64,000 nt of DNA. Source: Spartobacteria bacterium. Lineage in GTDB: Bacteria > Verrucomicrobiota > Verrucomicrobiia > Chthoniobacterales > UBA10450. A program made the translations under genes and the position numbers. Of this stretch, positions 1 through 59,788 are shown in pieces. The notes beneath the pieces are model-generated. The model did no database searches. It was given only the letters and a program-made list of their open reading frames with translations, and was not told the origin of the DNA. The DNA is taken from the NCBI GenBank assembly GCA_003134785.1, contig PLCN01000024.1, positions 69,216 through 133,215 on the forward strand. The letters run 5' to 3'. Every line of letters begins with the position of its first letter. Position 1 is the first letter of the stretch.

Positions 1-3000
1 GGACAAGATGCTTCAGGGTCAGTCCGCCCAGATGGTCTACTTTAACATGGGAAGCACGAACACTGCCTTCGGCGGACACCTTCCTGCGAATGTTGACGGC
101 CCGAATTTGCCTCCAGGGGGCACACCCAGCTACTTCGCGGAAATAGACAGCTCTGCGGATACTGGCTTGGGTAACAACCTGCGAATTTGGAAATTTCACG
201 TTGACTGGGCAACTCCAGCAAACTCGACCTTCGGGAATAATGGGCAACCCAATACCATTACGCAGGTCGACGATTTTGTGCGGCCTAGTTGCACGAACTA
301 CACCGCGGGTTGCGTCCCGCAGTTAGGCGATTCTTTCCAACTGGATCCGATCGGCGATCGCCTGATGGCCCGCGTGGTCTATCGGAGGTTTACCGATCAC
401 GAATCGCTTTTGCTTAATCATACCGTGGTGGCCGATAGCGTAACGGGGCAAATGGGCCCACGCTGGTACGAAGTGCGCGATCCCGGCGGCACGCCAACGA
501 TTTTCCAACAAAGCACGTTGGGACCAAGCAGCCAGACTGATGTCTATCGCTGGATGGGTAGCATCGCGATGGATGGCTCCGGCGATATAGCTATCGGTTA
601 CAGCACTTCCTCCAGCACCACCTTTCCTTCCATCGCCTATTCGGGACGGCTTGTAACCGATACCGGGAGTACGCTAGGACAAGGGGAAGCGCAGATGTTC
701 GCAGGCACCGGTCCGCAGCATGGCGAGGCATTTCCTCCGCAATTCGGCCGATGGGGCGATTACAGCGGGCTAACCGTGGATCCTGCCGATGACTGCACTT
801 TCTGGTACACGACCGAGTATTACGCATTGGCCGATGCTCCCACCGGGAATTGGCACACTCGTATCGGGAGTTTCAAGTTCCCAACATGTGTGGCCGCGAC
901 ACCTATCGCTACGCCGACGCCCACAGCTACACCTGTTTCTACTCCTGCGCCGACAGCTACAGCTACACCTACCCCAACGCCAACGTCTACGCCCTCGGGA
1001 ACTCCGAATCCATGTGGAATTCCGGTGATATATTCGAACACCGGCACCGTCACGATTAACGACAACGCTCCTGCATCACCTTATCCCTCGACCATCGATG
1101 CGACCGTCCAGCCTGGGACAGTGAGTAAGGTCACCGTGGATCTCGTCAGCATAACTCATAATTTTCCGGATGACATTGGCGTGTTGCTCGTCGGTCCTAC
1201 GGGCGTAAAAGTGCGCTTGATGACCGACGCTGGCGGAGGCGGCACAGGCTTTTCTCTAACTGGCGCTACAATGACGTTCGACGACGCTGCGACAACGCCG
1301 GTTCCTGATGAAGGTCCAATCGTTTCGGGAACATCCTACCAACCAACACAAGGCGTAATCAACACTCTCAGCAGCCCGCATCCGGCAGACTTTGCCGCAC
1401 CGGCGCCTGCCTCGCCCTACAGCAACGTGCTCTCGAGCTTTAACGGAACGGATCCCAACGGGACGTGGAAGTTGTTCGTCGACGACGATACGGCGGTTGA
1501 TGGAGGTGTGATCCAAAATGGCTGGTCCATGACCGTTACGACCGTTTGCACAGGGGCAACGCCTACACCTACCGCAACGCCAACAGCTACTCCAAGTGCT
1601 ACTGCAACCCCGACGCCAACACCAATTCCGGGGAGCATAACCTTCAGCCCTAACTACACGACACGTGCACCCTACATCGGCCAGGATGTCGAGCCAAGCG
1701 TTCGCTGCGATAAGTTTGGCAATTGCTACGTTGCTGCGATTCGCGGTGTCCCGGGGGGCACGGACCTTTGGTACTTCGATCTGCGACCCACAATTCCAGA
1801 TCCAGGCAGCCCTGGGAGTTCCATTGCCAATCCAATGTACGACCCGTACATGCGCAATCCGCAATATCGCGGTCAGCCAGACAAGATTGCACCAGTAGAT
1901 TGCACGCAGACCACACCGCCTGCCGCTTGTGACGGCACAGTGGGGGCTGATGGCGGGGGCGACGTGGACATCGCAGTCGGCTTCAATAGCGAGGCTACGG
2001 AAAATCCAAACGCGCCGCCAACCCTGGCCTATGCCAGCCTGGTCGTCGGAAACATCTCGACCCAGAGCTCGACTGATCGCGGCGCAACGTTTATCCAGAA
2101 TCCTGGCGGTAACGTAACTGGTGGCGTGCCCGGAGATGACCGGCAGTGGCTGGAATTTTTCGGTCCCAGTACGGTGTTCCTGTTTTACCGAACGCTGGAG
2201 CCGGCCATCTCGCAAGTTCAGCAGTCGATTGATGGCGGCCTTACTTACGGACCCGCAGCCACCGCCGGAGCCGTCGGTCAGGCAGGTGGAATTGCGGTCG
2301 ATCAGAACAATGGCAACGTCTATATTAGTGGGAGTAATGGCAGCGTCTCCGTAGGTATACCACCCGCCCCCGGCCTGGCGCCCTTGACTTATACCACAAC
2401 GCTTGTCGCGAGCGCGAACGATGCCCACCTCTTCTTCACGGTGAAGGTCGCGCCGGATAGCACCGTCTACGCCTGCTATTCAGATGACCACGATGTTTTT
2501 GTCAAATTTTCAACTGATTTCGGCAGCACCTGGAGCGCCGCTATTCAGATTAGCCATGGGGCGGAGACCAAGACCGCAGTCTTTCCGTGGATGACAACTA
2601 GTCCCGTGTCCGGGACTATTGGTGTGGTTTGGTACGGCAGCGATAAACTTACTACCACAGACGACTCCGCGGATTGGCATGTCTTTTACAATCTCGTGAC
2701 GACCGTTCAAGGCATTGCCGCTTTCCATCAGGCGATAGCAAGCGACCACGTGATTCATGCAGCTAACATCTCCGAGAATGGGTTAGTCGTCGCAGGTGTG
2801 TCGCCGAATCGTAACCTGGCGGATTACTTCCAGGTGGCTTTCGATCCGACCGGTGCCGCCGTCATCGGCTACTGCGACGATCACAACGACCTTAGCGGCC
2901 ATACCTATGTCACGCGCCAGATCAGCGGACCTAGCGCCCTGGGGTCAAACGTCCCGGCGCCGGTGGAAGGCGGTGGTTTGCTACCTCCCCCGAACGAACC

Positions 3001-4936
3001 TCTTCCGAGGGCGGTAGATGTTGGTGGTATTCCAGGGTCACAGGTCACCGACTTCAGGGATGATGTGCGGCTTGGCGGTAATCCCGAACTGGGGGGAACC
3101 GCCGTCCTCGCGGGGGATGATCCGCTCGACATTCTATCTATTTTGTATTCGGCGGAGCCCGTGCCTTTTTCTCTCAACAACGAACGGATGCTTGTCGCTA
3201 CCATGAAGGTTTCGGACATGACGGCTATTCCTCCGAGTTCGAACTGGCGAGCGACCTTTACCGCCAACGCGCCGGATTCCGTTCTTAGTCCGACCAACGA
3301 ATACACTTTTGGCGTTTCTGACCGGGGAGATGGGTTCTTTGTTCGAGCAACGACCGACGCTTCCGGTACCCAAACCTTCATGTACGGGACGGCGAAGAGA
3401 AACTTTAGCGGCGGTATCGACTACGTGGATGTCGGGACGGCGGATTGTGGATTCTTCGACCAAAGCGCAAAAACAATCACGATGAAAGTGACGCTTAGTA
3501 AACTCAACGCGGCCCTACCGTCTGGTCATCCCCCGATTGATGTCGGTTCGGTCCTGGTGGGTCTGCGCGGAAGCACCTTCACCACGGCGGGCTCTGGGGC
3601 GAGCGGCAACAACAAAGCGGACACAGCTCGTGGCGGAACGCAATACACCGTCACGGTTGGCCCATCGACTCCATGCGGACCAGGGCCGACACCAACGCCA
3701 ACGCCTACCCCAACAACCACACCGACGGCGACACCAACTCCGACCGCAACGCCGACTCCGACAGCTACGGCGACTGCGACACCTACGGTCACCCCGACAG
3801 CTACACCAACGGTGACTCCGACGGCTACACCGACAGCCACACCTACGGCCACTCCGACAGTTGCGCCTACAGCTACGCCTACCCCCACGCCAACAGTGGC
3901 GCCCACGGCTACACCTACCGCCACTCCGACCGTTGCGCCCACGGCTACGCCTACCGCCACGCCAACAGTGGCGCCCACGGCTACTCCAACGGTGGCACCA
4001 ACAGCTACTCCAACGGTGGCTCCCACGGCAACGCCGATAGCAACTCCAACACCCACGGCTGCGCCAACCGCCACACCTACGGCTAGCCCGACAGCCACGC
4101 CGGCTGCTACCGCTAGCCCGACGCCGACTGCTAGCCCAACGCCGACAGCTACTCCCACCCCGGCGCAGTTACTGAATATCTCGACCAGAGCGCGAGTTCA
4201 GACCGGCGATAACATCCTCATCGGTGGCTTCATCATCACCGGAGCCGAGTCGAAGAAAGTAATCGTCTTGGCGAAGGGTCCCTCGGTGCCGGTCCCGGGA
4301 AACCTGGCCGATCCTATCCTGGAGCTGCATGATGGCAACGGCGTTCTCATGACCACGAATGACAATTGGAAAGACTCACCGCAAAGGACGGAGATAGAGA
4401 ATAGTGGCTTCGCGCCGTCCAATGACAAGGAATCCGCCATCCTGCAAACACTTTCTCCGGGCAACTACACCGCGACCGTGCGCGGGGTCGGTAACACTAC
4501 GGGCGTTGCTTTGGTGGAGGTATACGATCTGGCCACGACCTCGAACTCCCAGCTGGCTAACATCAGTTCGCGCTGCTTTATCGACACGGCGGACAACGTG
4601 CTCATCGGCGGCTTTATTACCGGCCCGGGTGACAGAGGCGAGACCGCGATCGTGGTCCGCGCGCTAGGTCCGAGCCTGAGCGGCTTCGGAGTGCCGAACG
4701 CTCTGGCTGATCCCACCCTGGAGTTGCACGATCAGAACGGCGCAACGTTCGCGAGCAATGACGATTGGCAGACCGATGCGAACGCGAGCCAGGTGCAAGC
4801 CGCTGGTCTGGCACCTAACGACACGCATGAAAGCGCCATCTATTTCAAGCAAGCGCCATCCAACTTCACCGCGATCGTCCGCGGCAAGAACAACGCCACC
4901 GGAGTCGGCTTGGTGGAGGTCTATAACGTCAAGTAG
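1..4936 (+). CDS. Giant secreted multidomain protein, 5'-partial: sialidase-fold BNR/Asp-box propeller modules, proprotein-convertase P-domain-like module, Thr/Pro linkers, twin C-terminal ~125-aa module
   Basis: ORF 8..4936. The frame stays open to the window edge (GAC AAG precedes the first ATG) and there is no signal peptide, so the true start is probably upstream. Asp-box-like motifs are [18 protein letters not shown] and [10 protein letters not shown] propeller end reads [20 protein letters not shown]. The last ~330 aa are identical to the next gene. Confidence 0.85.
3685..4163 (+). repeat. Low-complexity (ACN CCN)n region encoding a ~160-aa Thr/Pro/Ala linker
   Basis: The translation is [22 protein letters not shown]...TATPTPA. 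The antisense frame gives a spurious GVGVAVG ORF (3526..4158). Confidence 0.9.
3940..4936 (+). repeat. ~1-kb dispersed direct repeat, copy 1 (3' end of gene 1), near-identical to 8640..9639
   Basis: Fixed offset of 4703 nt to copy 2. The encoded proteins are identical from ..[27 protein letters not shown].. to the stop. The left boundary fades into the Thr/Pro linker and is approximate. Confidence 0.85.
4164..4933 (+). other. Twin C-terminal ~125-aa module (copies 1 and 2) of the first giant protein
   Basis: [65 protein letters not shown], followed by [64 protein letters not shown] and the stop. Confidence 0.8.
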
Positions 4937-5028
4937 AAACTAACAGTGACCGTGAAAATGAACCTTAACGAACCAAGATTCGTCCGTCAGATCCGTACCC
5001 GCGTCGCCTAAAAAGAAGAGCCATCCTT

Positions 5029-8000
5029 ATGCAAAAGAAATCCAACTCCGAATCCGCGCTTTTCCAACCACGCGTCTTAAGTGCGCTTTTACTTTGTTTT
5101 GCCGGGTTGCTCCTGGCGATGTTCAGCTTCGCGAAGCCGGCTCCGCAGACTGGCGTTGCCCAGGTGTCAGCGAAACAAAGCAACGCGCCGACCCCAGCTG
5201 GTGACACCCTCAGCCCGACCAGCGGACCGCTGACGTTCACGGATAGCACACCGTTGGTCCCAAATCCGACCGGCGAAGGAGTAGGCTTCAGCGCGCCAAC
5301 ATGCGCGGCGAACACCTGCAGCACTTATACCCTCACGCTCGATCCTGCTCTTTTCTTGGTTGCCGGCAGTTACGATCCGGCGCAAAACAACATTGTTATT
5401 CAAATTTCGTGGCCAGTTGCCACGACGCAGTATGGATCGTTCGTGGAGGACGCGAGCGGAAACGTGATTGCGTCGAACACGGCGGGCATCGATCCGGAAA
5501 CAATTACCATTCCGATCACGACCCTGAATCTGCAGGCCAATGGCCCATATACCATTGTCACAACAGTGGAAATCGGCACCGGTCCTTCTATAACTGGAGT
5601 GATCACGCTTGTGCCGCTTTCCGGCCCAGGAACCGTGTGCAGCGGCTGCATTCCCCCGCGCTATCAGATGTACGAAGCGCCTGCCGGCGTTTCCACTCAA
5701 TCAGGCGAACCTTCCATCGGTGTGGATTGGAATCCAAATGTTAGCAGCCTGAAACAAATCGGCCCGGGGACACTAGCGCATGGCCCGACCCTCCTTAACA
5801 CCGGCGGCATAACAATGTTTACAGCTACTTTCGATCAGTATCAGGTGGCGTTCGATGATTGCTCTTCGCCCGCGGTCAACACTTGGACGGATACTGCTTT
5901 CATCGTCCAGCAGACTACTACCCTGGATGCGATCGGATTTACCGATCACTTCACCAGTCTCCCGCTTGGCACCGGTCCTTATAGTCCCGGCAATCCGACG
6001 ACTCCAGGCCGGACCTTCCATGGCCAGCTCACCGCCGGTGATAGTAACACGTCTTACACGGATGATGATGGCGGCAGTCACACCCAGACCCAAGGTGGGG
6101 GCGTGCCCCAAGGTCCCGATCACGAAACGATCGGCGGCGGTCCTTATAATCCTAACTCGACACCGGCTCCACCTCCCAACCTGATTTACCAAAACGCGAT
6201 TTATTATTGCACTCAGAATATCGCGCCGGAAGCGGAGTGCTCCCGCAGTGATGACGGCGGCCTAACGTTTGGTCCGGGCGTTCCTATTTATACTCCGACC
6301 CAATGCACTGGGTCGATTCATGGACACGTGAAGGTGGCGCGCGACGGTACCGTTTACGTGCCGAATTATTCCTGCACTTTGTCAGGCGCAACTCAGGGTG
6401 TCGCTGTTTCGACCGATAACGGCATAACCTGGAACGAGCGCAACGTGCCGGGAAGCGGCAGTCCAAAGCCAGGCCTGGTCGATCCATCGGTAGGAATTGG
6501 TCTCAATGATGTGGGTAACACTAATCCTCCGGGTGGCGCAAATGCCATCTACTTTGGCTACATCGAGAACGATGGCACGCCGAAGATCGCCGTGTCGCAT
6601 GATCGCGGACTCACTTGGTCTACCGCGCAAAATGTGGGAGCTGCCTTTGGGATCGTGAACTCCACTTTCCCGGTGGTGGTGGCGGGAGACGACAACCGCG
6701 CCGCTTTCGGTTTTCTTGGGACTACCACTCCCGGCGATTCATCGTTGAACGCGAACTTCCCCGGAATTTGGCACCTCTACATTGCCACGACGTACGATGC
6801 CGGTGTCTCCTGGGTGACCCTCGACGCCACTCCCGACGACCCCATCCAGGTAGGTCCCGTCTGTAACGGTGGCACGACCTGTCCAACGAAACGAAACCTC
6901 TTGGACTTTAACGGCTTCGATGTGGATAACGAAGGTCGCGCAATACTCGGCCTTTCGGATGGCTGCGTTAATTGCACCAATAGCTCCACTTCGGGCGACT
7001 CCAACGCAGCCCAGGGATTAATCGCACGGCAAGCGGGCGGTCCCAGATTGTTTTCCTTCTTTGATCCTCCCGCGCACGCGGTCCCCGCGGCGCCGCAAGT
7101 TCTCTCAGCCGTGTCTCAACCAACCGGTGTCCTCGTTTCCTGGCTAGAACCCGACAATGGCGGAGATCCTATTACCGCCTACAAGATTTACCAGAGTTCT
7201 ACCAGCGGAAGCGAGACTCTAATCGCAACGGTCAGCAACGATCCGCTGAACAAACACACCAAGTACCTCGATCCGTCAGGGCTCAACACGTCAAACTCCT
7301 TTTATCATGTGACGGCTGTGAACACGAATGGTGAATCGGCCTTCTGCCAGGAGGTCAGCGTCGTTACCGTGGTTGGCACTGGTGACGCGTGCACCTACCC
7401 ATATCTCGGTGTCGCTCCGGCTGGCCACGCCGGCACCGTCCCGGCCGATCCAACGAACGGAGAACTGACCATTCAGTACGTCAATATGGGTGAGCCATTT
7501 ACCAACTGCACGGACAACTCCATCACGTTCCTCATGAAGGTTCAGACGTTAGATCCGGCGGGAACCGGAACCGCCGCTCCGCCACCAAATAGCGAGTATC
7601 AGATTCTTTTCGGGATCATCGATACTCTTGGGAATCCGCAAACGATCTTCGTGGATATGGATACGAATGGCGCGGTGCCAACACCGGAATTCAGCTACGG
7701 GAGACGTGACCCCAGCTCGACCGGCGGGACACTCGACACCACAGTGTGCACGGCCAGCACGACATCGACTTGCCCGGCGATATCGGGAAGCGTTAGTGCG
7801 GACGGAACAATCATCATTAAACTGGATGTTTCAGCTCCGCTCAATTTCCCAGCCCCGACCGCTGGGGCGACAGGTGTCACCTTTGACTGGGACGCCAGCG
7901 CACCTGGCAAAAAGCTGCTGAGTATAACTGGTAATACTATTACTCTAATCGGCGGCGCCGGGACCGGTTTGCTAGAAACTGTCCAGACAACCAGCGGCGG

Positions 8001-9639
8001 CGCCTACACCAGAGTCGGTAACATTTCCTGCGCCGGCCTGATTCCGGTGGCGGAACTCTCCGCTACTCCGAGTGCGGGTCCGTCACCGCTGTTGGTGAAT
8101 TTTGACACTTCGGCTTCGCACGAACCCGCTGGCGCGTGCGGCACGATCAACTCCTACACGCTGGACTTTGGTGATGGGAGCGCGTTCGAGACCAATGCGA
8201 CCGGCGTTTTTTCGCACACCTACACTGCTGACGGCAGCTACCCGGCGCGGCTGACTGTTTCAGATTCGGTTGGTCAGGCAAGCACTAACCAAGCTCAAGC
8301 TGTTATCACCGTGGGAACAGTACCGACACCGACTCCAACACCTACGCCAGGGGCTACAGCGACTCCAACGGCAACACCCACAGCCGCTCCAACAGCCACG
8401 CCAACAGTTGCGCCTACGGCCACACCTACGGCCACGCCAACAGTTGCGCCTACAGCCACACCTACTCCAACACCTACGCCGGGGGCCACAGCGACTCCAA
8501 CGGCAACACCTACAGCCGCTCCGACAGCTACACCAACGGTGACTCCGACGGCTACACCGACAGTTGCGCCAACGGCCACACCTACGGCCACTCCGACAGT
8601 TGCGCCAACGGCTACACCTACCGCCACCCCAACAGTTGCGCCAACGGCTACGCCGACCGCCACGCCAACAGTGGCGCCGACGGCTACTCCAACGGTGGCA
8701 CCAACAGCTACTCCAACGGTGGCTCCCACGGCAACGCCGATAGCAACTCCAACACCCACGGCTGCGCCAACCGCCACACCTACGGCTAGCCCGACGGCCA
8801 CGCCGGCTGCTACCGCTAGCCCAACGCCGACTGCTAGCCCAACGCCAACAGCTACTCCCACCCCGGCGCAGTTACTGAATATCTCGACCAGGGCGCGGGT
8901 TCAGACTGGCGATAACATCCTCATCGGTGGTTTCATCATCACGGGAGCCGAGTCGAAGAAGGTAATCGTGCTGGCGAAGGGTCCCTCGGTGCCCGTTCCG
9001 GGAAACCTGGCCGATCCTATCCTTGAGTTACATGACGGCAACGGCGTTCTCATGACTACGAATGACAATTGGAAAGACTCGCCGCAAAGGACGGAGATAG
9101 AGAACAGCGGCTTCGCGCCGTCCAACGACAAGGAGTCCGCCATCCTGCAGACACTTTCTCCCGGCAACTACACCGCGACGGTGCGCGGGGTCGGTAACAC
9201 TACCGGCGTTGCTTTGGTGGAGGTATACGATCTGGCCACGACCTCGAACTCCCAGCTGGCTAACATCAGTTCACGCTGCTTTATCGACACGGCGGACAAC
9301 GTGCTCATCGGCGGCTTCATTACCGGCCCGGGTGACAGAGGCGAGACCGCGATCGTGGTCCGCGCGCTAGGTCCGAGCCTGAGCGGCTTCGGAGTGCCGA
9401 ACGCTCTGGCTGATCCAACCCTGGAGTTGCACGATCAGAACGGCGCAACGTTCGCGAGCAATGACGATTGGCAGACCGATGCGAACGCGAGCCAGGTGCA
9501 AGCCGCTGGCCTGGCGCCTAACGACACGCACGAAAGCGCCATCTATTTCAAGCAAGCGCCATCCAACTTCACCGCGATCGTCCGTGGCAAGAACAACGCC
9601 ACCGGAGTCGGCTTGGTGGAAGTCTATAATGTTAAGTAA
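5029..9639 (+). CDS. Giant secreted protein: signal peptide, PPC-like N-domain, BNR/Asp-box propeller, FN3, unnamed beta-sandwich, PKD, ~180-aa Thr/Pro linker, twin C-terminal module
   Basis: ATG followed by a hydrophobic signal ([19 protein letters not shown]). Asp-boxes [39 protein letters not shown]3-like [24 protein letters not shown]-like [36 protein letters not shown]. Confidence 0.9.
8321..8866 (+). repeat. Low-complexity region encoding a ~180-aa Thr/Pro/Ala linker with an internal ~130-bp tandem duplication
   Basis: [29 protein letters not shown].. occurs twice (about 8325-8455 and 8456-8585). The antisense ORF 8295..8861 is spurious. Confidence 0.9.
8640..9639 (+). repeat. ~1-kb dispersed direct repeat, copy 2 (3' end of gene 2)
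   Basis: See 3940..4936. About 35 nucleotide differences over the last ~800 nt, counted by eye, all synonymous. Confidence 0.85.
8867..9636 (+). other. Twin C-terminal module of the second giant protein (protein-identical to 4164..4933)
   Basis: The amino-acid sequence is identical to 4164..4933 in the ORF track. Confidence 0.8.
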
Positions 9640-9743
9640 CAGCAGTAATCGTACGACCCGCGCTGCGACCAAGAATAGAAGTCCTATCACGCTATGAAAC
9701 AACAGTCTTCTGCCATAACAGCTCTATTAATCGAAAATCGTAT

Positions 9744-12700
9744 ATGAAAATAAGATCCTTTTCGCTAACCGCTCGCGCCGCCCTCGGCACCCTGCTCTGC
9801 CTAAGCAGCGTGGCGCTATTTTGCGCCATACCATTAAGCCGCACCCGCGCGCAAAGCCCCGCCACAGGTACAGTGGGACCGACCGGTCCCGGGTCCGCTT
9901 GGGATGGCACGATAATCGTACCCGTTGGCGGCGTGGTGAATATGGAGTCTCTCTGCCAGGATGGCGTTAATTGTGAAACTTATACGCTGACCGTCACCGG
10001 GACGCCGGCTCAGTGGGCTGGCAAAAGAGTGCAGGTTTTGTTGACGTGGACCAGCAGTACAAATGAGTACGACATCTACATTCACAAGGGCTCAAACAAT
10101 AACCCGGTGGTTACTTCAGCCGCGGCAGGACCCGGGCTTACAAATCAAGTAGCATACATTAACCCGAGCACGGACGGCGTCGGCGTCTTCACGATCCACG
10201 TGGCTTACGACACGGTGCCGGCCCCGGCCCTGGACCATTACCACGGCACGGCGACCGCAGTGCCCGAAACGCCCGCGCCTCCTCCGCCGGCGCCGCAGGA
10301 TTCAGGGCCCAAGATCGGTTACGAGAATTTCGAGGCCCCCGGCGTTCTGACGCCGGGAACATCGACCAGCTCAGGCGGAGTGACGGTGGAATACATGGGG
10401 CGTGGCGCGGGCGAACCCTCCATCGGCAGTAACTGGGCTACTGGCGTCGCGAACTTTCAGTCGGACTTGGAAACTCTGTTTATCACCTTCGACGACTCGT
10501 GTTCATTAACGAATCCGAAAGCAAGCTGGGTAAACCGCCGGGCTCCTACGTCTGTTTTTATCGACTCTGATCCTATCGGATTCACCGATCGTGGAACTAC
10601 TACAGGCCGCGTCTTTGCCTCCGAGCTCACCCTGCTCGGCCCTAATACCGTCAAGATTTCCCATAGTGACGACGACGGCCTTACCTGGATTGTGGCGCAG
10701 TCCGGCGGCCTCGCATCGGCGGTGGACCACCAGACAATCGGTGGGGGTATTTATCATACGCCGATTCCGTCAGGAGTGAACCCCCTTTACCCGAACGCGC
10801 TTTACTACTGCTCGCAGGATATCGCGGCGGCTTTGTGCTCGAGAAGCGATGATGGCGGAACTACCTACGGCCCTTCCGTCCCAATCTATAACCTGACGGC
10901 ATGCGGCGGCTTGCACGGCCACGTAAAGGTTTCCCCCAAAGACGGAACCGTTTATGTCCCGAACAGGCAGTGCGGTTCGCAATCAGCGGTGGTTGTTTCC
11001 CAAGATAACGGACTAACCTGGACCATCCGGCCTGTGCAAAACGGGTCAGTTTCTGACACCGCTGCCACTGATGATCCGGCTGTAGGTATCGATGACAATG
11101 GTCGTGTCTATTTTCTCTTCGCGAACAACGGCACCGCCGCGGGAGTCGCTACTTCTGACGACTTTGGGGCTACCTGGCAGAACATCGTCGATGTGGGGGT
11201 TCCTTTTCCGTTAAAAAATATCGCCTTCCCAGCCGCCGTTGGCGGCAGTAGCACCGGCGGCAATACCGGCCGCGCCGCGGTCGCCTTCTATGGGTCAGTT
11301 ACGGGCACAGGAGACTCTAACGCAGATACTTTTGCCGGTGTCTGGCACCTCTACATCGCGCACACCTTCGATGGAGGATTAACTTGGACGACCACCGACG
11401 CGACGCCGAATATGCCGATGCAGCGTACCGGTATCTTGCGAGGAGGCGGAGGACCCGTCACGCGGAACCTGCTCGACTTCTTCGATATCACCATCGACCG
11501 GGATGGTCGTGTCCTGGTCGGTTACGTGAACGGTTGCTCGGGTGGCGACTGTGCTCAAGCCCCGATAAATCCGGATGGTTCATCCGGTGTGACCGGAAAC
11601 GCTTACTCCGTGACCGCGACGATCGCGCGGCAGTCCAGCGGCCGAAGGATGCTTGCCAGCAAGTCAACGCCTACTACTTCCGCGCCAGGAATGCCATTCG
11701 TCACTCAACGGCGAATCGGTCCTGTCGTCCATCTGGCGTGGAGCGAAGCGGATACCGGAAACTCGCCCATCACGGGCTATCAAATATTGAGGGGCACCGC
11801 GAGCGGCGGAGAGACCCTCCTGACGACCGTGCCAGGAACTCAAACGGGTGGGACCTTTGATGACTCAACGGCCACCGACATCACCAAGACTTATTACTAT
11901 AAGGTGCTGGCGGTAAATGGCACTACAGCTCCGCTCGGAGCATCATGTGCTAACAATGAAATTGCTGCTCCCTATGTGGGCGAGCCATGCGGTAAAATGA
12001 TCATTCACACGAACGATCCGACCCATCCCGAAGCGCTTGGAGGTAGTGCGATGCAGCCGCCTACGCCTCAACTTCTCATTGACTATGTTGCGGTCGGCGA
12101 GCCGCCGTCGAGGCCGGGCGTTCTCATGTTCCAGATGAAAGTAGGTGATCTTTCGACCGTTCCACCGAACAGCAGATGGAGAATGGTCTGGGATTCGCCC
12201 GCTTCTCCAGACGAACAGTATTACGTCGGCATGACGACCGACGGAACTAGCACTGTCACCTTTGAGTACGGCACGCTCCAAACCGCATCCCTCGTCGTGC
12301 TCGGCGTTCCCACGGAAATACCGGCGGCCGGACCGCCTGATCCCGCGAGCAACTTCAACGCCGATGGCACAATCACGATTTTCCTGGCGAAATCCGCGAT
12401 TGGAAATCCTCAACCGGGAGATCTGCTCGGGGCGGTGAACGGAAGGACATTCGATACCGGGGATAGCCCTCCTATGACCTTGGAGCGCTCGAACCTGTTA
12501 GTAGATCATACTTTCGTCAAAGGAAATACCGACAATAGCTATCCTGCTGCCACCTACACAGTGGTCGGCAATGTCCCTTGCGGAGCAATACCGAACACAC
12601 GGCCCACGGCTGATCTGAAGGCCAACCCAACATCGGGGAACGCGCCACTGAGCGTGACCTTCGACGGCACTGGCTCATTCGATCCGGATTTTAGTGATAC

Positions 12701-13793
12701 GATTGCCAGTTACACCTTCAAGTTCGGCGACGGCAGTGCTGACGTCACCCAGGCCTCGCCTGTCGTTCAGCACACCTACGTCAGCGCGGGAATCTACGCC
12801 GCGCAATTAGTCGTGACCGACTCACGTGGAGCACAGAGCACAAATACGGCCGAGCAAGTGATTACGGTAACGCCGGCGACGACGCCTACACCTACTCCTA
12901 CTCCGGGAGGAACACCTACACCTACTCCGGGAGGAACGCCTACTCCTACTCCAGCGGGAACAGCTACTCCGACGCCTACGCCATCGCCCCAACCCACGCC
13001 CGCTAACATCCAGCTAGTAAACATTTCGGGCCGTGTCTTTGTTCAAGGTGGCGATAACGTCGGAATCGGTGGTTTCATCATTACTGGTTCAGGCACGAAG
13101 CGCATCATAGCTCGTGGCATGGGACCGTCCGTGAAAGTTAATGGCAACCCTGTTCCAGGAAGCTTGCAAGATCCAGTGCTCGAGCTCCACGACAGCAACG
13201 GAGGTGTCATCACCAACGATAACTGGCGCAGTACGCAGGAGGCCGAAATCCAGCAAACCGGCCTGGCGCCAGCTGACGACCACGAAGCCGCCATCGTGAA
13301 AAGGCTGCCTGCGGGCACTTACACCGCTGTGGTTCGCAGCGCCGATGGCAGTCCGGGTGTTGGTTTGGTAGAGCTATACGACCTGAGCACCGCTGACCCC
13401 GGCGAGCTGGGCAATCTGTCCGTTCGCGCTTCGGTTCAAACCGATGACAATGTTCTCATCGATGGCTTGATCCTGCAGGGCGGAGACCCAAAGCGCGTTC
13501 TCTTTCGCGCGCTCGGTCCATCGGTGCAGGTCAACGGCGCACCTGTCCCCGGCGCGTTGCAGGATCCGACGCTCGAGCTGCATGATGGGAATGGCGCGCT
13601 TCTCCTTAGCAATGATAACTGGAAAGATGCGCCGAATGCAGCGGACATCCAGGCGACCGGGTTAGCTCCTGGCGATGATAAAGAATCCGCGATCCTGATG
13701 ACGCTCGCACCGGGGAATTACACGACGGTGGTGCGTGGCGTGAATCGGACGACGGGCATCGGACTGGCCGAAGCGTACAAGCTGGATAATTAG
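9744..13793 (+). CDS. Giant secreted protein, paralog of 5029..9639: signal peptide, PPC-like N-domain, BNR/Asp-box propeller, FN3, beta-sandwich, PKD, Thr/Pro linker, twin C-terminal module
   Basis: Signal LGTLLCLSSVALFCAIPLS. Asp-boxes SHSDDDGLTW, SRSDDGGTTY, VSQDNGLTW, TSDDFGATW, HTFDGGLTW. It shares [19 protein letters not shown] with [18 protein letters not shown] of the previous gene. FN3 VVHLAWSEADTGNSPITGYQILRG. PKD LSVTFDGTGSFDPD..YTFKFGDGS..HTYVSAGIYAAQLVVTD. Confidence 0.9.
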   Translation: MKIRSFSLTARAALGTLLCLSSVALFCAIPLSRTRAQSPATGTVGPTGPGSAWDGTIIVPVGGVVNMESLCQDGVNCETYTLTVTGTPAQWAGKRVQVLLTWTSSTNEYDIYIHKGSNNNPVVTSAAAGPGLTNQVAYINPSTDGVGVFTIHVAYDTVPAPALDHYHGTATAVPETPAPPPPAPQDSGPKIGYENFEAPGVLTPGTSTSSGGVTVEYMGRGAGEPSIGSNWATGVANFQSDLETLFITFDDSCSLTNPKASWVNRRAPTSVFIDSDPIGFTDRGTTTGRVFASELTLLGPNTVKISHSDDDGLTWIVAQSGGLASAVDHQTIGGGIYHTPIPSGVNPLYPNALYYCSQDIAAALCSRSDDGGTTYGPSVPIYNLTACGGLHGHVKVSPKDGTVYVPNRQCGSQSAVVVSQDNGLTWTIRPVQNGSVSDTAATDDPAVGIDDNGRVYFLFANNGTAAGVATSDDFGATWQNIVDVGVPFPLKNIAFPAAVGGSSTGGNTGRAAVAFYGSVTGTGDSNADTFAGVWHLYIAHTFDGGLTWTTTDATPNMPMQRTGILRGGGGPVTRNLLDFFDITIDRDGRVLVGYVNGCSGGDCAQAPINPDGSSGVTGNAYSVTATIARQSSGRRMLASKSTPTTSAPGMPFVTQRRIGPVVHLAWSEADTGNSPITGYQILRGTASGGETLLTTVPGTQTGGTFDDSTATDITKTYYYKVLAVNGTTAPLGASCANNEIAAPYVGEPCGKMIIHTNDPTHPEALGGSAMQPPTPQLLIDYVAVGEPPSRPGVLMFQMKVGDLSTVPPNSRWRMVWDSPASPDEQYYVGMTTDGTSTVTFEYGTLQTASLVVLGVPTEIPAAGPPDPASNFNADGTITIFLAKSAIGNPQPGDLLGAVNGRTFDTGDSPPMTLERSNLLVDHTFVKGNTDNSYPAATYTVVGNVPCGAIPNTRPTADLKANPTSGNAPLSVTFDGTGSFDPDFSDTIASYTFKFGDGSADVTQASPVVQHTYVSAGIYAAQLVVTDSRGAQSTNTAEQVITVTPATTPTPTPTPGGTPTPTPGGTPTPTPAGTATPTPTPSPQPTPANIQLVNISGRVFVQGGDNVGIGGFIITGSGTKRIIARGMGPSVKVNGNPVPGSLQDPVLELHDSNGGVITNDNWRSTQEAEIQQTGLAPADDHEAAIVKRLPAGTYTAVVRSADGSPGVGLVELYDLSTADPGELGNLSVRASVQTDDNVLIDGLILQGGDPKRVLFRALGPSVQVNGAPVPGALQDPTLELHDGNGALLLSNDNWKDAPNAADIQATGLAPGDDKESAILMTLAPGNYTTVVRGVNRTTGIGLAEAYKLDN
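12868..13002 (+). repeat. Short Thr/Pro/Gly linker with a GGTPTPTP duplication
   Basis: [44 protein letters not shown]. Confidence 0.85.
13003..13790 (+). other. Twin C-terminal module of the third giant protein (diverged copy)
   Basis: [64 protein letters not shown], followed by [66 protein letters not shown]. Confidence 0.8.
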
Positions 13794-24476: not shown

Positions 24477-24896
24477 TTATTTCAAGCGCCCTTCGTCGAA
24501 TTCGATGAGGTCGAAGTAGGTGCGAATATCTTTGCGGCCTTCGCCGCCGGCTTCTTTGAGGAAGTGGATGAAGCGCGCCTTTTTCGCGGCGGTATCCGGA
24601 CAGCGCGAAATCATGGCCTCATTCCAATGTTCGATCGCATCGGCCGAATGCGCGGTGCCATTTTTCGAAATCCAATCGAGAATCCCGGCGTCGTCATCGA
24701 GGCGGTTGGCCGCTTCTTCAAACGCGTCCGGGTTCAACTTCAGAAAGGCCAGGAGATGTTTGTCGAACCCGACGGTTTTGTAATTGTAGCCGTCAAGCAA
24801 GCCTTTGCGATGGAGCTTCGCCTTGTCGATCAAACGCGGCAGATGCACGTAACCGCCCAGCCGGTCGTACGGACTGCGTGGACGCAGCTTTTGCAT
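24477..24896 (-). CDS. DUF5069-like protein
   Basis: RSPYDRLGGYVHLPRLIDKAKLH matches my memory of DUF5069 N-termini. It is the last gene of the minus-strand run. Confidence 0.75.
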   Translation of the reverse strand: MQKLRPRSPYDRLGGYVHLPRLIDKAKLHRKGLLDGYNYKTVGFDKHLLAFLKLNPDAFEEAANRLDDDAGILDWISKNGTAHSADAIEHWNEAMISRCPDTAAKKARFIHFLKEAGGEGRKDIRTYFDLIEFDEGRLK

Positions 24897-24907
24897 TCAG
24901 CCCCGAA

Positions 24908-25765
24908 CTAAGTCGCGGGCAATGGATGCGGCACCACGTCCGGCGGGATCACATCCGCGCCTGCGTCCGAAGCAGCAGCGATTGGCTTCGACTCCGGCAG
25001 CAGCTCAGCTTGAGTGAGTCCGGCGTTGCCAATGACCAACTGGCCGGAAAAGATGCCGCCTTTCTCCACGGAAATCGATTTCGCGGTCACGTTTCCATCG
25101 AGCATCGCGTGGCGATGAATGACCACCGCGCCCTCCGCGATGATCTCCCCCGTCATCCGCCCGCGAATCTCGATGCTCTTGACTCGAAGGCGCCGGAAAA
25201 ATTGCACATCGGATTTTTTCTCGACCAGGACCCGTTCCGCTGTGAGCCGTCCGGGAATTTTGCCGGTGAAATTTATCGTCGCCGTTCCGACGCAATTCAT
25301 GTTGCCGCGCATTTTCCCTTCGATCAACGCAGTCCGGCAAGTCACGCTGCTGCTGCTGAGATCTCCTTTCGCGGTGACGTGAATCTCGCCGTGAGTTTTG
25401 ATCGAGCGGCTGAAGCTTGTGACTACCTTGTAATCGCGCAGATCGATGTGCGTGCTGCACTTCGGACAAAATGTGGACGAGGCGGCGGAGCTGATTTCCT
25501 GCTTCGCCTTGCAATCGAAGCATTCGATCTCCGAGTTGTGATGCTTCGTCCAATAGCCTTCCAGTTTTCGGAAAAGCGACGGATCGGCCACCGCCTCGAC
25601 CGGCTCGTCCTTGGGCCGGAGACGCACTTCCATCTTCGGCGCGGAAGGCGCGAAATGAGCGCCGCATTGGCGGCACATCGTGCTCTTCGCCGCAGCATAT
25701 TCCATCTGCTTAAAGCCACAATGCGGACAATCCACATTGACTTTAGCAGGCGACGGCTTGGCCAC
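24908..25765 (-). CDS. Bactofilin with two N-terminal zinc-ribbon motifs
   Basis: CPHCGF..CRQCGAHF and CFDCKA..CPKCSTHI, followed by bactofilin-type beta-helix repeats (IEGKMRGNMNCVGTATINFTGKIPG..IRGRMTGEIIAEGAVVIHRHAMLDGNVTAKSISVEKGGIFSGQLVIG). Confidence 0.8.
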   Translation of the reverse strand: MAKPSPAKVNVDCPHCGFKQMEYAAAKSTMCRQCGAHFAPSAPKMEVRLRPKDEPVEAVADPSLFRKLEGYWTKHHNSEIECFDCKAKQEISSAASSTFCPKCSTHIDLRDYKVVTSFSRSIKTHGEIHVTAKGDLSSSSVTCRTALIEGKMRGNMNCVGTATINFTGKIPGRLTAERVLVEKKSDVQFFRRLRVKSIEIRGRMTGEIIAEGAVVIHRHAMLDGNVTAKSISVEKGGIFSGQLVIGNAGLTQAELLPESKPIAAASDAGADVIPPDVVPHPLPAT

Positions 25766-25789
25766 TGGTGGCGTTGGACAGGTAGCGGC

Positions 25790-26359
25790 TTAAACGCGGG
25801 CGCCGAAAGCCGACTTGGCTGGGGGCGTCGCCGGCTCTTCGTTCCGAACGATCTCTGGTTTCGCGGCCGGGGTGGCGCCTTTGCTGGCGCCGCCGCTGGT
25901 CACTTCGGATTTGCCGATAAAAGTAGCGCCCTCTTCGATCACGAGCCGCGCTGCTTTCAAGTCGCCCTGCAGCGTGCAACGCGATTTCAGCTCGCAACGT
26001 TCGCCCACGGTGATGTTCCCCTGAACCTTGCCGTAAACCGTAATCGATTTGGTTTTGATCTCGCCGCGGATGTCCGCGTTCTCACCGATGGTGAGGACGC
26101 CGTCGGAATTGATCTCCCCTTCGACTTTGCCGTCGATGAGCAATTCCTTTTGAAATTTGATGGAGCCCTTAATCTCGACGTCGCTCGAGAGGATGTCTTT
26201 GCCAGAATGTTCAGCCATATATTTTTGTGGATCGATTGTTGGTGGTGATGTTCGGGGTTGTTCGCGCTGAGCGAGCCCGTTGTTCTCATCAGTGCCCGCG
26301 CTTAACGATCCTTCTCCGATCGACGACAGGGGCTTCTGCGGGATGAATTTTTTCAGCAC
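25790..26359 (-). CDS. Bactofilin
   Basis: SSDVEIKGSIKFQKELLIDGKVEGEINSDGVLTIGENADIRGEIKTKSITVYGKVQGNITVGERCELKSRCTLQGDLKAARLVIEEGATFIGK. The start could instead be the internal MAEHSGK. Confidence 0.85.
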   Translation of the reverse strand: MLKKFIPQKPLSSIGEGSLSAGTDENNGLAQREQPRTSPPTIDPQKYMAEHSGKDILSSDVEIKGSIKFQKELLIDGKVEGEINSDGVLTIGENADIRGEIKTKSITVYGKVQGNITVGERCELKSRCTLQGDLKAARLVIEEGATFIGKSEVTSGGASKGATPAAKPEIVRNEEPATPPAKSAFGARV

Positions 26360-26390: not shown

Positions 26391-27992
26391 TCAATGGCTT
26401 ACCGAGGGAAAGTCATCTTTTTCCGCGGAAAGCTGGACGTGAAACACTTTGCAGGCCGTGTTTTGGGAGACGAGGTGAAGGAATTGGGGCGCCTGGCTCG
26501 GGGTGCGATCGAGCACGCGGCCGAGGGGATTTTCAGGCGGTGGCAGGCCGAGAATAGCGGGTGAATTGGCCAGGGTGCGGTCTGCGTCGTACACCAACAC
26601 CCAGGCGACCTTGCTCTTGAGCAGGAGCTCGCGCCCCGTTTCTGCGTCCGATGCGAGGAAGAAACGCGCGCTGCGTGCGATTCCATCCAGCGATTCGTGC
26701 GAAGAGCCCGCCACACCGGGCTGGCCCGACCAATAGGCGACTGCGGGCGACCACCACCACGGTGCGAGGAAAGCGGCCTCGGCCTTGCCAGCAAGCGCGG
26801 TTGCGGCGGCCCGACATTGCACGGCTTCGAGGCGGCGTTCCAAGTGAAGAGTGTTTTCAGACTCGTTAGGCCAAAGGCTTGCGTCCCAATCCAACATGAT
26901 CGGGCACAGCGAAACAACGATGGCGACCCACGCGATGGTGCGACTCTTGACCACTTTGAGCAGCGCGGGCAAAGCCACAGCAAAAATCGCGACAAAGAAA
27001 TAAGCCCAACGCGCCTGCCAAGCCGTGAGAACAAACGTCGTCATCAACAACGCCGCCAGGAAAATGGGAACCGCAAAAGTTCTCCGCACCGCGATCCAAA
27101 GAAGGGCTGGCAACGGAATGAGCAGCAGCCCAGCCCAGCGAAGCCAGATCGGATCATCGAGCGGCACGTGCTTCAGCTCGCCGATCGTCGCCGCCCAATT
27201 CGTTCGAATCGGATCTGATCCGAAACGCGGCCAGCTCGGCAGCCGCTGTTCGATCAACAATCCCAGCACGGTGATTATCCCGAGCACAGCCCAGCCAATC
27301 CGACGATGCCTCGCCGTAAAATTTTGATGAGCAAAGACAGCGTGAGAAAGAAGGACCACCAATAGCAGAACCGGCGGTTCGTAAAGCGAAACCCACAACG
27401 CCAGACCCCACGCCGCGCCATTCACCGCGCTCCATCCGCGCGATGCTTCCGTTTGCAACGTCCATTCGGAACAAACGGCGACGATCAAAAGCAGAATTAG
27501 AAACGACTGATGATCCGGCCGGCCCAGTTCCATTCCATGCACGAGGATTGGACTCACCGCGTAGATCAGCAGAAGCGCGCCCCGATATCGCAGTTTGCTT
27601 CGCCGCGCCCACCACCACAAAAACCAACCCGCCAGCAAACCGAGCAGCGGCGAAATAATTGCGCCCGCCAGATCGAGCGCTCGAGCCGTAAACGGCTTGA
27701 GCATTTCCGCCACTGCGACGATGAGATAATCAAACGGCGCGGTCGTGTGCGGTGTCGTCCCAGCGGGAAAATTCTCGAACGAATGATGCCGAACGACGAG
27801 CCCCGGATGTTCCAGACACATGCGCGCGCGCGTCATGCGCGAATAACAATCGGCGTCGGAAAAGTAGATGTCGCCCCCAACGAAAACGTCCTGATAATTC
27901 GCGCACCTCGCCGCGAGAATGAGCGCGCTGAAAACCAGGAACTCGACGACGAGAGTCGTCGCGCGCACTGCACGACGAAGCGAAGGATTCAA
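26391..27992 (-). CDS. Polytopic GT-C glycosyltransferase, STT3/AglB/PglB-like (divergent oligosaccharyltransferase homolog)
   Basis: More than 10 hydrophobic segments. Loop-1 FSDADCYSRMTRARM..FENFPAGTTPHTTAPFDYLIV, loop-2 ELGRPDHQS, C-terminal APWWWSPAVAYWSGQPGVA in place of WWDYG. The ORF-track start (28064) overlaps the tRNA, so I place the start at the TTG at 27992. The start is uncertain. Confidence 0.6.
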   Translation of the reverse strand: MNPSLRRAVRATTLVVEFLVFSALILAARCANYQDVFVGGDIYFSDADCYSRMTRARMCLEHPGLVVRHHSFENFPAGTTPHTTAPFDYLIVAVAEMLKPFTARALDLAGAIISPLLGLLAGWFLWWWARRSKLRYRGALLLIYAVSPILVHGMELGRPDHQSFLILLLIVAVCSEWTLQTEASRGWSAVNGAAWGLALWVSLYEPPVLLLVVLLSHAVFAHQNFTARHRRIGWAVLGIITVLGLLIEQRLPSWPRFGSDPIRTNWAATIGELKHVPLDDPIWLRWAGLLLIPLPALLWIAVRRTFAVPIFLAALLMTTFVLTAWQARWAYFFVAIFAVALPALLKVVKSRTIAWVAIVVSLCPIMLDWDASLWPNESENTLHLERRLEAVQCRAAATALAGKAEAAFLAPWWWSPAVAYWSGQPGVAGSSHESLDGIARSARFFLASDAETGRELLLKSKVAWVLVYDADRTLANSPAILGLPPPENPLGRVLDRTPSQAPQFLHLVSQNTACKVFHVQLSAEKDDFPSVSH

Positions 27993-28033
27993 TCTGTGGG
28001 GATTCTTTTCATTCCGAAATCCGAAATCGCAGC

Positions 28034-28106
<73 letters not shown>

Positions 28107-43300: not shown

Positions 43301-43496
43301 TCTCCTCGCCTCGAATGACAACTGGCAGCAGGACTCTTTGCAGGCGACCCAGATCCAGGGTGTTGGCTTGCCTCCAATCAGCCCGTTGGAAAGCGCCATA
43401 ACCACGACGCTGAATGCGGGCAACTACACTGCGGTCGTGCGCGGCGCGCGCGGAACGACCGGCGTCGCCTTGGTCGAGGTTTACGATCTGCAATAG
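40326..43496 (+). CDS. Secreted subtilisin/sedolisin-fold (S8/S53) serine peptidase with the twin C-terminal module
   Basis: Signal MKRLILLACASALAATAHAQ. Ser motif FFGTSAAAPTAAAIAALMLEA. AEIVHDIAPAAKI (E-x3-D) resembles the sedolisin Glu/Asp pair more than the subtilisin HGTH motif. Confidence 0.85.
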   Translation: MKRLILLACASALAATAHAQISPVPNIAVPENLGLGLKQLAELSQQNQSQLRTRITSSSSIMSDASGRVAVNIYLDGKISAADLTAKLIELGLEIVAVDNQWRSGVISAWLPIAQAIPVANLAGVQSVMLAPRPVRYVGVVTAESSVVEHAAEVNTPGLFSAQGILGRGISVGIVSDSFDSAPGVPRASVGIASGDLPGPANPDGYTQPVVVLNDDSSAGVTDEGRGIAEIVHDIAPAAKICFSAVGSTQATMASAIRGLRTSSATLCDVIVDDIGFPDEPFFSDGIVAQAVEDVATSASLPGKKVSYFSAAGNNTNRGYSADANIISSTAAQPFRGNLRLTQVPSNLYSGGFQNLGSDAAPAIIMPVTIGPDSAQIVFQWDDPLGGGVTTDYNLLVFDQNGNYLSSLSGTDNSFSTMQPLEIVQLNANTNYQLVISLRSGNPPTARHLRVISFGQGEVTGPFFTDNIITLFGHPAAADANSVAAYVYSSTPGSVPNYNSNHSNPPPGPYEPALESFSSQGGNLPFYFNAQGQRLASPEIRLKPEFAAADGVDTSFFPTDAGSDTDNDGYPNFFGTSAAAPTAAAIAALMLEAAGGPASLSPGQVRLILQQTADAHDVDPNFSTAIASGGTANVQLTATGDDSNESATSPTFFNLTFNGQAGEALHQFTIDLSTTPLVFDQSADLGFPFTVGQNGGGVSISPSFSADLRVLTLDFGDSFTPGQTISFGVDRDLAAINAGGNSADLLAGADIAAVVDAGQILYGAFGNQLGKSFVATDGYGLVDAKAAVQSIVGHGPAATGVPVNLSTRGTVGAGDDVLIGGLIIEGGASKQVIVRALGPSIPVPGALSNPTLELHDGNGNMLAFDDNWQDDPAQAAKIQATTIPPSDPRESGLVESLLPGNYTAIVRGAGNATGVALVEVYDLDSQPAPSRLANIATRGTVQTGDNVMIAGFILNNNPAAIVVRAIGPSLAAAGVAGALSDPALEIRDDQGNLLASNDNWQQDSLQATQIQGVGLPPISPLESAITTTLNAGNYTAVVRGARGTTGVALVEVYDLQ
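42725..43493 (+). other. Twin C-terminal module on the S8/S53 peptidase
   Basis: [64 protein letters not shown], followed by [63 protein letters not shown] and the stop. Confidence 0.8.
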
Positions 43497-49572: not shown

Positions 49573-49777
49573 AGAGAGAGGCCGGAAAGGTAGAATGCCC
49601 CGGCGTGAAATTCAGGTGCTATTTGCGCCGGAGGAGCGGGGGTCGTCAAATCGAATCGAATGACAGGTGGCGACGGCGCGCTGCGTCGTTCGACTGTTTT
49701 GCATTGCGCCGTTTCGCGGCGAAATTCGTCGGACGCCTCGGAGATGCGTCTCTACCTTGGTGAAAAGTAAACGCAAA

Positions 49778-56504: not shown

Positions 56505-56561
56505 CGCGCGACGGATTGAACAGCGGCTTGTGACCGCGGCCGTGCCAATTCCTTCCGCAAT

Positions 56562-56653
56562 GGTAGGGACGGCGCGCTGCGCCGTCCGAAACGTGTTCTC
56601 GCCCCGGATCTATCAGCGACGGAGCGCGGACGCCGCAGCGCGGCGTCCCTACC
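56562..56653. repeat. GGTAGGGAC-armed inverted-repeat element
   Basis: GGTAGGGACGGCGCGCTGCGCCGTCC ... GGACGCCGCAGCGCGGCGTCCCTACC. Each arm is itself a hairpin. Confidence 0.65.
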
Positions 56654-59715: not shown

Positions 59716-59788
59716 GGTAGGGCGACGCTCCGCGGAGCCGTTGGTTGGGCGGACCGAATCCACCGGCTCGATGGAGTCTCGCCCTACC
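59716..59788. repeat. GGTAGGGCG-armed inverted repeat overlapping the stop codon of the upstream gene
   Basis: GGTAGGGCGACGCTCCGCGGAGC ... GGAGTCTCGCCCTACC. The TAG stop of the 59784..60416 gene lies within the right arm. Confidence 0.6.

Follow-up and report, generated by a model that had tools for sequence, protein, structure and literature searches.

Two neighboring genes of a Spartobacteria bacterium (Verrucomicrobiota; Chthoniobacterales) end in exactly the same protein sequence, although the DNA encoding it differs at 48 positions and the rest of the two genes is barely related. The question raised by this locus is therefore how the ends of two different genes have come to be the same, and have stayed the same, in protein and not in DNA. 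The window, i.e., the whole stretch of DNA analyzed, comprises 64,000 nt (assembly GCA_003134785.1, contig PLCN01000024.1, positions 69,216–133,215 of the forward strand), and position numbers are window coordinates unless a contig is named. The window genes in question are referred to as g1, g2, g3, and g4, and a further gene upstream of them as g0. The explanation considered quite probable here is patchy conversion of part of the gene between g1 and g2, together with very strong purifying selection on the shared cassette, which consists of a linker end and a tandem of two modules (the didomain).

Identical protein with silent DNA differences

The two 3' ends were compared without gaps at an offset of 4703 nt. 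Positions 3887–4936 of g1 and 8590–9639 of g2, both on the forward strand, encode an identical protein over 349 codons plus the stop codon. The DNA differs by 48 nucleotides in 47 codons, and all of these differences are synonymous, including TAG/TAA at the stop. In both genes, the block comprises the end of a Pro/Thr-rich linker, module 1 (4163–4546 in g1 and 8866–9249 in g2), module 2 (4547–4933 and 9250–9636, respectively), and the stop codon. Its limits are the linker on one side and the stop codon on the other. Going upstream, the first amino acid mismatch occurs at codon 3884 (P/A), and the similarity ahead of 3887 fades to the generic resemblance of Pro/Thr linkers; downstream, no homology was found between the intergenic DNA past the g1 stop codon and that past the g2 stop codon. 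The N-terminal bodies showed 23% identity over 372 aa (E = 0.001).

As only 29% of random substitutions in the block would be synonymous, the probability of 47 silent changes out of 47 was 7e-26. Nei–Gojobori counting gave 280.5 synonymous and 766.5 nonsynonymous sites, with 47 synonymous and 0 nonsynonymous changes, corresponding to a synonymous divergence (dS) of 0.19. A codon maximum-likelihood fit of g1 against g2 yielded a nonsynonymous to synonymous rate ratio (omega) of 0, with a 95% upper bound near 0.016. The same likelihood rejected omega = 1 (2dlnL = 116, p = 4e-27), omega = 0.1 (p = 4e-6), and omega = 0.045 (p = 0.001). Moreover, since a transversion at a two-fold site changes the residue, a deficit of transversions there serves as an internal control for selection. 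The four-fold third positions had 33 differences, namely 18 transitions and 15 transversions, whereas 12 transitions and 0 transversions were present at 100 two-fold positions, where 6.6 transversions were expected (P = 0.001).

These results largely bear out an earlier sequence-only reading of this DNA, which had argued for very strong purifying selection acting after duplication or gene conversion and had proposed the dN/dS likelihood test that was run here. It had aligned the two ends at the same offset and had described an identical protein over roughly 330 aa, slightly less than the block found here. Its count by eye of about 35 substitutions in the last ~800 nt was close to the 36 present there (41 across 3940–4936), and the example codon pairs that it named were all found. 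Its claim that every difference is silent held for 48 of 48, with no nonsynonymous difference in the exact alignment. The premise that most random changes would alter an amino acid under neutrality and the description of the N-terminal parts as distantly related were likewise sound. As for the tight interaction surface that it gave as a possible cause, the fold described below speaks only for a binding-type module. Two of its points held in part. A denser stretch of differences exists, but it extends over ~315 nt (4187–4501, 24 differences, dS 0.39) and not ~150 nt. Similarly, the homogenized unit does include linker and didomain down to the stop codon, but of the linker it takes in no more than the distal ~90 codons.

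Recurrence of both copies in independent assemblies

The sequence-only reading had itself raised the objection that the two copies might be an assembly artefact, i.e., a collapsed or duplicated repeat; a mixture of strains would be another such source. The window derives from metagenome-type assemblies, and short reads have difficulty resolving repeats of ~1 kb with 95% identity. Accordingly, independent assemblies were compared. Two distinct copies, each with its own flanks, were present in separately assembled contigs of at least three samples (JGI 3300050011, JGI 3300037054, and ENA ERZ19973444). The loci of JGI 3300050011 and 3300037054 matched the window base for base across 19.6 kb and 13.0 kb, respectively, and the ENA assembly L070 showed 3 differences in 19,639 bases. 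In addition, the exact g2 protein was carried by 10 contigs. An artefact of this kind is scarcely conceivable given that the copies lie in different unique contexts with 48 fixed differing sites, and that an artefact would not give differences that are silent only. At the level of assemblies, the presence of two copies was thus confirmed.

Mosaic divergence and probable gene conversion

Two metagenome contigs were used as outgroups: L067, which is syntenic with ~86% DNA identity and contains frameshift errors, and L068, which is ~79% identical. Over the didomain, g1 and g2 differed by 34 silent and 0 replacement changes (dS 0.20, omega 0). Each of them differed from L067 by 48 silent and 8 replacement changes (dS 0.31, omega 0.045), and from L068 by 93–100 silent and ~48 replacement changes (dS 0.81–0.93, omega ~0.1). 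Since the dS between g1 and g2 (0.20) was lower than that to L067 (0.31), the two copies coalesce, on average, after the split from L067. Over the whole didomain, therefore, the paralogues were closer to each other than to the orthologue, as is the case in concerted evolution, but the order was reversed in 4187–4501 (dS 0.39 vs. 0.27).

The divergence between g1 and g2 was uneven along the block, with dS values of 0.05 (3977–4162), 0.39 (4187–4501), 0.04 (4502–4804), and 0.28 (4805–4933). In the high-divergence patch of g1 (4187–4501, forward strand), all 24 differences are silent and the g1–g2 divergence equals or exceeds the divergence between g1 and the orthologue. In the adjacent patch (4502–4806, forward strand), which appears recently homogenized, only three differences are present, at 4570, 4615, and 4714. 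When the silent differences between g1 and g2 were set against those between g1 and the orthologue, they numbered 24 vs. 18 in 4187–4501 and 3 vs. 14 in 4502–4804 (Fisher p = 0.009), which is the mosaic pattern of concerted evolution. The comparison with orthologous loci that the sequence-only reading had suggested thus showed, with L067, a paralogue/orthologue distance that flips between segments.

The L070 assembly provided a second line of evidence. Its three differences from the window are 4570, 4615, and 4714, i.e., consecutive g1/g2 diagnostic sites in g1, and all three change to the g2 allele. By rough arithmetic, the chance of three independent mutations landing in this way is ~5e-10. 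The pattern represents either a segregating conversion tract of 145–305 nt or repeat cross-talk in the assembly.

A simpler history can be proposed, in which a single duplication or domain shuffling was followed by strong purifying selection without conversion, and the uneven density of silent differences reflects local mutation rate or codon constraint. Such a history would also leave all differences silent with an omega of ~0. At 16 of the g1/g2 differences the L067 orthologue had the g1 allele and at another 16 the g2 allele, an even split expected from a simple ((g1,g2),orthologue) tree. In a runs test of these matches, no tract signal emerged (14 runs by hand count vs. ~17 expected). A scan statistic on the silent sites alone was marginal (p ~0.03–0.05). 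However, local rate variation would scale both distances, whereas the distances between the copies and to the orthologue flipped as described above, and all three changes in L070 go to the allele of the paralogue. This simpler history is therefore regarded as unlikely. Repeated partial gene conversion between the tandem paralogues, patchy and ongoing, is probably the better description than one event followed by divergence.

The lengths of the identical runs fit such conversion. The longest runs shared by g1 and g2 measured 116, 98, 92, and 68 nt, and those within 4187–4501 reached at most 26 nt. Approximately 26 nt is the minimal length for efficient RecA or homologous pairing, which would explain why this patch escaped homogenization. 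The same observation could be taken to mean that silent divergence was itself selected, because it suppresses recombination that would delete the g2 body. In agreement with this, unique changes were more numerous in the window copies than in the L067 copy (32 vs. 12 in 4163–4933). However, the same asymmetry was found in the single-copy g1 body (109 vs. 38 in 2747–3600, with L073 as the outgroup), so that the effect belongs to the lineage and not to the repeat. Moreover, identical runs of 68–116 nt remain, and there is an apparent conversion tract that still segregates. Selected synonymous divergence was accordingly rejected as very improbable; the approximately threefold excess of window-lineage substitutions in both regions points to a lineage-wide shift in rate or composition.

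Micro-conversion from other didomain paralogues was also considered. At 4322–4333, g1 has a derived silent cluster, GAG CTG CAT GAT, in place of the ancestral GAG TTA CAT GAC, and the derived form, which lies in a conserved motif, equals the homologous stretch of module 2 of g3. At the g1/g2 differences, module 2 of g3 matched the g1 allele eight times and the g2 allele zero times. As seven donors were tested and each site offers few codon choices, these matches amount to a hint at most, and the candidate was dropped.

Strength of constraint on the didomain

Between the window and L067, the g1 body had an omega of 0.16–0.18, the g2 body one of 0.12, the g3 didomain one of 0.10, and the g1-type didomain one of 0.045. 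Other neighboring didomain pairs in related genomes showed an omega of 0.10–0.17. For example, one pair (L102) had 52 silent and 23 replacement changes at a dS of 0.32, and another (L001) had 4 and 2, respectively. The g1/g2 pair was thus under stricter constraint than these comparators. In a three-taxon codon model, the paralogue tips had an omega of 0, compared with 0.056 on the remaining branch (likelihood ratio test 9.45, p = 0.002). Correspondingly, the replacement/silent counts were 0/34 on the tips and 8/31 on the orthologue-plus-internal branch (Fisher p = 0.005). As the tips were stricter than the orthologue branch, something more than ordinary purifying selection may be involved, and there is a statistical hint that the copies differ by fewer replacements than the usual constraint on the module would lead one to expect.

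Selection for sameness beyond ordinary constraint could account for this hint. Both secreted proteins would have to fit one partner (a ligand, a receptor, or a co-assembly), and replacements would survive only when conversion installs them in both copies. Besides the two tests above, both copies share at least three lineage-derived replacements, and the other neighboring paralogue pairs do tolerate replacements. V61, D157, and G174 were derived in the window lineage and occur in both copies, D157 and G174 within the recently homogenized patch and V61 within the old diverged patch. However, the comparison of branches depends on eight replacements and a single, error-prone orthologue contig, and rate heterogeneity among sites or lineages could mimic its outcome. 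In addition, the candidate partner is hypothetical, and the didomains of g0, g3, and g4 are only ~50% identical to that of g1/g2, which means that the fold tolerates much change. We therefore hold a demand for sameness to be rather doubtful, and the same grade applies to the survival of replacements by conversion into both copies.

Fold and distribution of the module

The didomain has ~257 residues and consists of two modules of ~128 residues with the motif NISTR..V.TGDN.LIGGF...DP.LEL.D..G....NDNW...ESA....L.PG.YTA.VRG...TG..LVEVY. The AlphaFold2 models of the didomain and of module 1 were confident, with predicted local distance difference test scores of 90.8 and 91.4, respectively. With the single module, Foldseek returned at probability 1.00 the C-terminal jelly-roll of the subtilisin Tk-SP (3afg, TMq 0.63), the pre-peptidase C-terminal (PPC) domain of a Bacillus anthracis collagenase (5sv5, TMt 0.68), the collagen-binding domains of ColG and ColH (1nqj and 3jqw; 1nqj TMt 0.62), and the C-terminal domain of the Clostridium perfringens enterotoxin. 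The didomain model, including module 2, matched the tandem ColG s3a–s3b structure 5iku. According to these models, each module has the beta-sandwich (jelly-roll) fold of PPC and bacterial collagen-binding domains.

By sequence, this relationship was barely visible. Pfam gave no match for the didomain or either single module, even at E values up to 10; the module thus falls outside Pfam PPC (PF04151) by sequence and is classed by fold only. The only curated sequence model to match the isolated didomain was NCBIfam NF038127, the DVUA0089 family (E = 8e-8, 32.8 bits vs. a cut-off of 29). The match spanned profile positions 50–112 of 150 (~63), which corresponds to one module, and full-length g1 and g2 gave no hit. 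A search of PDB sequences with the didomain profile returned only spurious designed Kelch proteins.

The didomain stands at the C-terminus of secreted enzymes in g0 to g4, and among the 150 best family representatives, most have a match that extends to the final residues of the protein. The conserved acidic and aromatic positions, in the motifs DPxLELxD and NDNW, are only suggestive of calcium-dependent ligand binding. PPC domains of secreted proteases are reported to bind substrate and often to be processed (PMC6168687, PMC3327674). From its fold and architecture, the cassette is most likely a shared ligand- or surface-binding module.

The family to which the didomain belongs is large. One word-indexed search yielded at least 7,999 proteins, and clustering at 50% identity gave 18,986 clusters with E ≤ 0.001 and 10,134 with E ≤ 1e-30. 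The best didomain match among 185,579 species representatives was 66%. The matches of the genome scan came mostly from metagenome-assembled genomes of Chthoniobacterales and other Verrucomicrobiota, with a few from other phyla, and one protein match was annotated as Acidobacteria. In these matches, the didomain sits behind many different N-terminal domains.

Proposed history of the cassette

Taken together, the observations suggest the following history. The genes g1 and g2 lie side by side in a tandem array that encodes large secreted proteins in a Chthoniobacterales-like soil verrucomicrobium, and they have different enzymatic or adhesive bodies. The cassette, i.e., the end of the Pro/Thr linker and the two beta-sandwich modules, would have passed from one gene to the other. 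Short-patch gene conversion, recurring between these direct repeats at a distance of 4.7 kb, would since then have preserved their similarity. Conversion would still be active where the identical runs are long (68–116 nt) and would have stalled in 4187–4501, where they are 26 nt or shorter, so that this patch could diverge as far as the species split. Between conversions, mutations would build up in each copy, and very strong purifying selection (omega below ~0.016) would remove every amino acid change, leaving only silent differences.

Several observations weigh against this history. The patchiness is marginal in the assumption-free scan statistic, and the tract in L070 could be assembly cross-talk between repeats rather than real conversion. 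V61 is a shared derived two-base change within the old patch and fits a simple tree poorly. Because of the frameshift errors in L067, a few of its eight replacements may be sequencing errors; three others are clearly derived in the window lineage. Furthermore, gene conversion by itself leaves unexplained why replacements are rarer between the paralogues than on the orthologue branch, and the putative binding function draws on fold and architecture alone. Even with these points taken into account, patchy conversion under very strong purifying selection is the reading we would expect to hold.

Organization of the locus and related loci

The 3' part of g1 occupies 1–4936 (forward strand; open reading frame (ORF) list and Pfam), and the full-length gene is contained in the base-identical contig L069. 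It encodes a secreted multidomain protein of 1920 aa and starts 827 nt ahead of the window edge. Its body contains three Pro/Thr linkers and a P_proprotein-like domain, with the didomain at the C-terminus. The distal Pro/Thr-rich linker (3674–4162, forward strand) has a 12-nt periodicity, as seen in the translation and the repeat families. This periodicity is common to all three linkers of g1 (897–1000, 1557–1633, and 3674–4162), which are additional internal substrates for recombination.

The second gene, g2 (5029–9639, forward strand; ORF list, translation, and Pfam), encodes a secreted protein of 1536 aa with, in order, a signal anchor, a weak BNR/sialidase-like propeller, a PKD domain, a Pro/Thr linker, and the didomain. 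It is followed by g3 (9744–13793, forward strand), a 1349-aa paralogue of g2 (33% identity), whose own didomain (13011–13790) is ~52% identical to that of g1/g2. In both g2 and g3, the BNR/sialidase-like signals are weak, and the PKD domain matches that of ColH. Farther downstream, g4 (40326–43496, forward strand) encodes a 1056-aa subtilase (Peptidase_S8) with a fourth didomain (42732–43493), ~53% identical to that of g1/g2. In contig L069, a further paralogue, g0 (1296 aa; L069 4–3894), lies upstream of g1 (L069 4146–9908). The genes g0, g1, g2, and g3 thus form a tandem array, and each of g0 to g4 has a C-terminal didomain and a signal-like N-terminus. The Pro/Thr-rich linker with 12-nt periodicity precedes the didomain in g1–g4, and g0 lacks such a linker. 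The N-terminal motif FNPRVF/L.A..L...G.LLAM...A.P.PP is common to g0, g1, and g2 (5029–5150 in g2), and the signal peptide of g3 differs; judged from the sequence, this motif may be a lineage-specific export or anchoring signal.

The dS to L067 was approximately two times higher in the g1 body (2747–3738, dS 0.6–0.7) than in the g2 body (5992–8297) or the didomain (~0.3). This contrast suggests recombination between strains with breakpoints inside the array.

Related loci show other arrangements of the same parts. In L067 (2287–6861), the g2 orthologue lacks a g1-type cassette, and its own PKD domain runs into a g3-type PKD domain, linker, and didomain. This join reflects either a ~4.3-kb deletion that fused g2 to g3 or a misassembly. 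In L073, a relative with 78% identity, a single ORF of 3032 aa (1673–10771) combines a g2-like N-terminus with a g1-like body, linker, and didomain, and the gene order around Iso_dh differs as well. Three short didomain genes occur in tandem in L072. In a more distant syntenic contig, a g1/g2-type didomain lies directly upstream of the g3 orthologue, and this arrangement is thus probably ancestral. Overall, shuffling of domains and genes appears to be frequent at this locus.

A promoter and terminator scan of 4800–9900 gave counts at or below shuffle expectation. Antisense ORFs across the didomain (e.g., 4198–4464 and 4465–4716, minus strand) were taken as by-products of the G+C-rich sequence. 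Five ORFs of 200–557 aa had no Pfam match at E ≤ 1e-5, namely 24878–26248 (forward strand) and 26391–28064, 49646–50536, 56501–57109, and 59784–60416 (reverse strand). The rest of the window encodes ordinary housekeeping functions, including isocitrate/isopropylmalate dehydrogenase, PGI, a sigma-54 response regulator, GlnD, cytochrome bd oxidase, AcrB/HlyD efflux, malate synthase, MurJ, and glutamate dehydrogenase.

Implications and comparison with known systems

The evolutionary mechanism proposed here, concerted evolution of part of a gene together with strong purifying selection, is already known. Two points are mildly new, namely the statistical hint that sameness between the two copies is enforced more tightly than conservation of the module over evolutionary time, and the size and obscurity of the family. 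As a 349-residue identity is combined with 4.6% silent DNA divergence, selection can be separated from recency, and the locus is a clean natural case of part-gene concerted evolution with a conversion tract apparently visible between assemblies. In addition, the locus draws attention to a very large family of C-terminal tandem modules resembling PPC and collagen-binding domains in uncultured soil bacteria, which has neither a Pfam model nor a described function. The unusually strict conservation suggests an important shared ligand, and the identity of this ligand would help explain how abundant soil bacteria deploy secreted enzymes. If the doubtful demand for sameness were real, one partner would have to serve as the docking site of two different secreted enzymes, and the didomain family (~19,000 clusters) would represent a C-terminal module that soil Verrucomicrobia and their relatives use specifically for targeting or anchoring.

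In structure, the didomain resembles the tandem s3a–s3b of ColG from Hathewaya histolytica and the PPC domains of proteases (5iku, 1nqj, 5sv5, and 3afg), since all are beta-sandwiches and the tandem stands at the C-terminus of a secreted enzyme. A PKD domain followed by tandem binding domains is the layout of ColG and ColH, and the didomain likewise follows a PKD domain in g2 and g3. However, the structural alignments had only 12–14% identity, a Pfam PPC match is undetectable in the didomain, and its partners here are BNR-like propellers and a subtilase. The partial profile match of the isolated didomain to NF038127 leads to a family that is itself without a described function; DVUA0089 is listed in a sigma-54 regulon for exopolysaccharide and biofilm (PMC4641369).

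With regard to mechanism, the EF-Tu genes tufA and tufB of Salmonella and E. coli evolve in concert through RecA-dependent gene conversion (PMC5485169). As in g1 and g2, two near-identical paralogues lie on one chromosome, the homology ends at a coding-sequence boundary, and the conversion tracts are short. The differences that remain between the tuf genes are reportedly mostly silent under strong purifying selection. Unlike the tuf genes, g1 and g2 share only the C-terminal part of otherwise unrelated genes and are close direct repeats, 4.7 kb apart. Their shared product is a secreted, putative binding module and not an essential translation factor, and their conversion is partly stalled (dS up to 0.39).

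With regard to architecture, the carbohydrate-active enzyme cluster of Caldicellulosiruptor bescii is the closer comparison. There, all but one CBM3 are >99% identical across neighboring multidomain glycoside hydrolases (PMC3082886). Both loci are tandem clusters of large secreted enzymes in which differing catalytic parts carry a common binding module, and shuffling between neighbors is implied in both. The modules of C. bescii are said to be joined by Pro/Thr-rich linkers. The present locus belongs to another phylum, and the fold of its module is similar to PPC and collagen-binding domains and not to CBM3. Moreover, unlike in C. bescii, the protein identity of g1 and g2 is accompanied by 4.6% silent DNA divergence, which argues for selection rather than mere recency.

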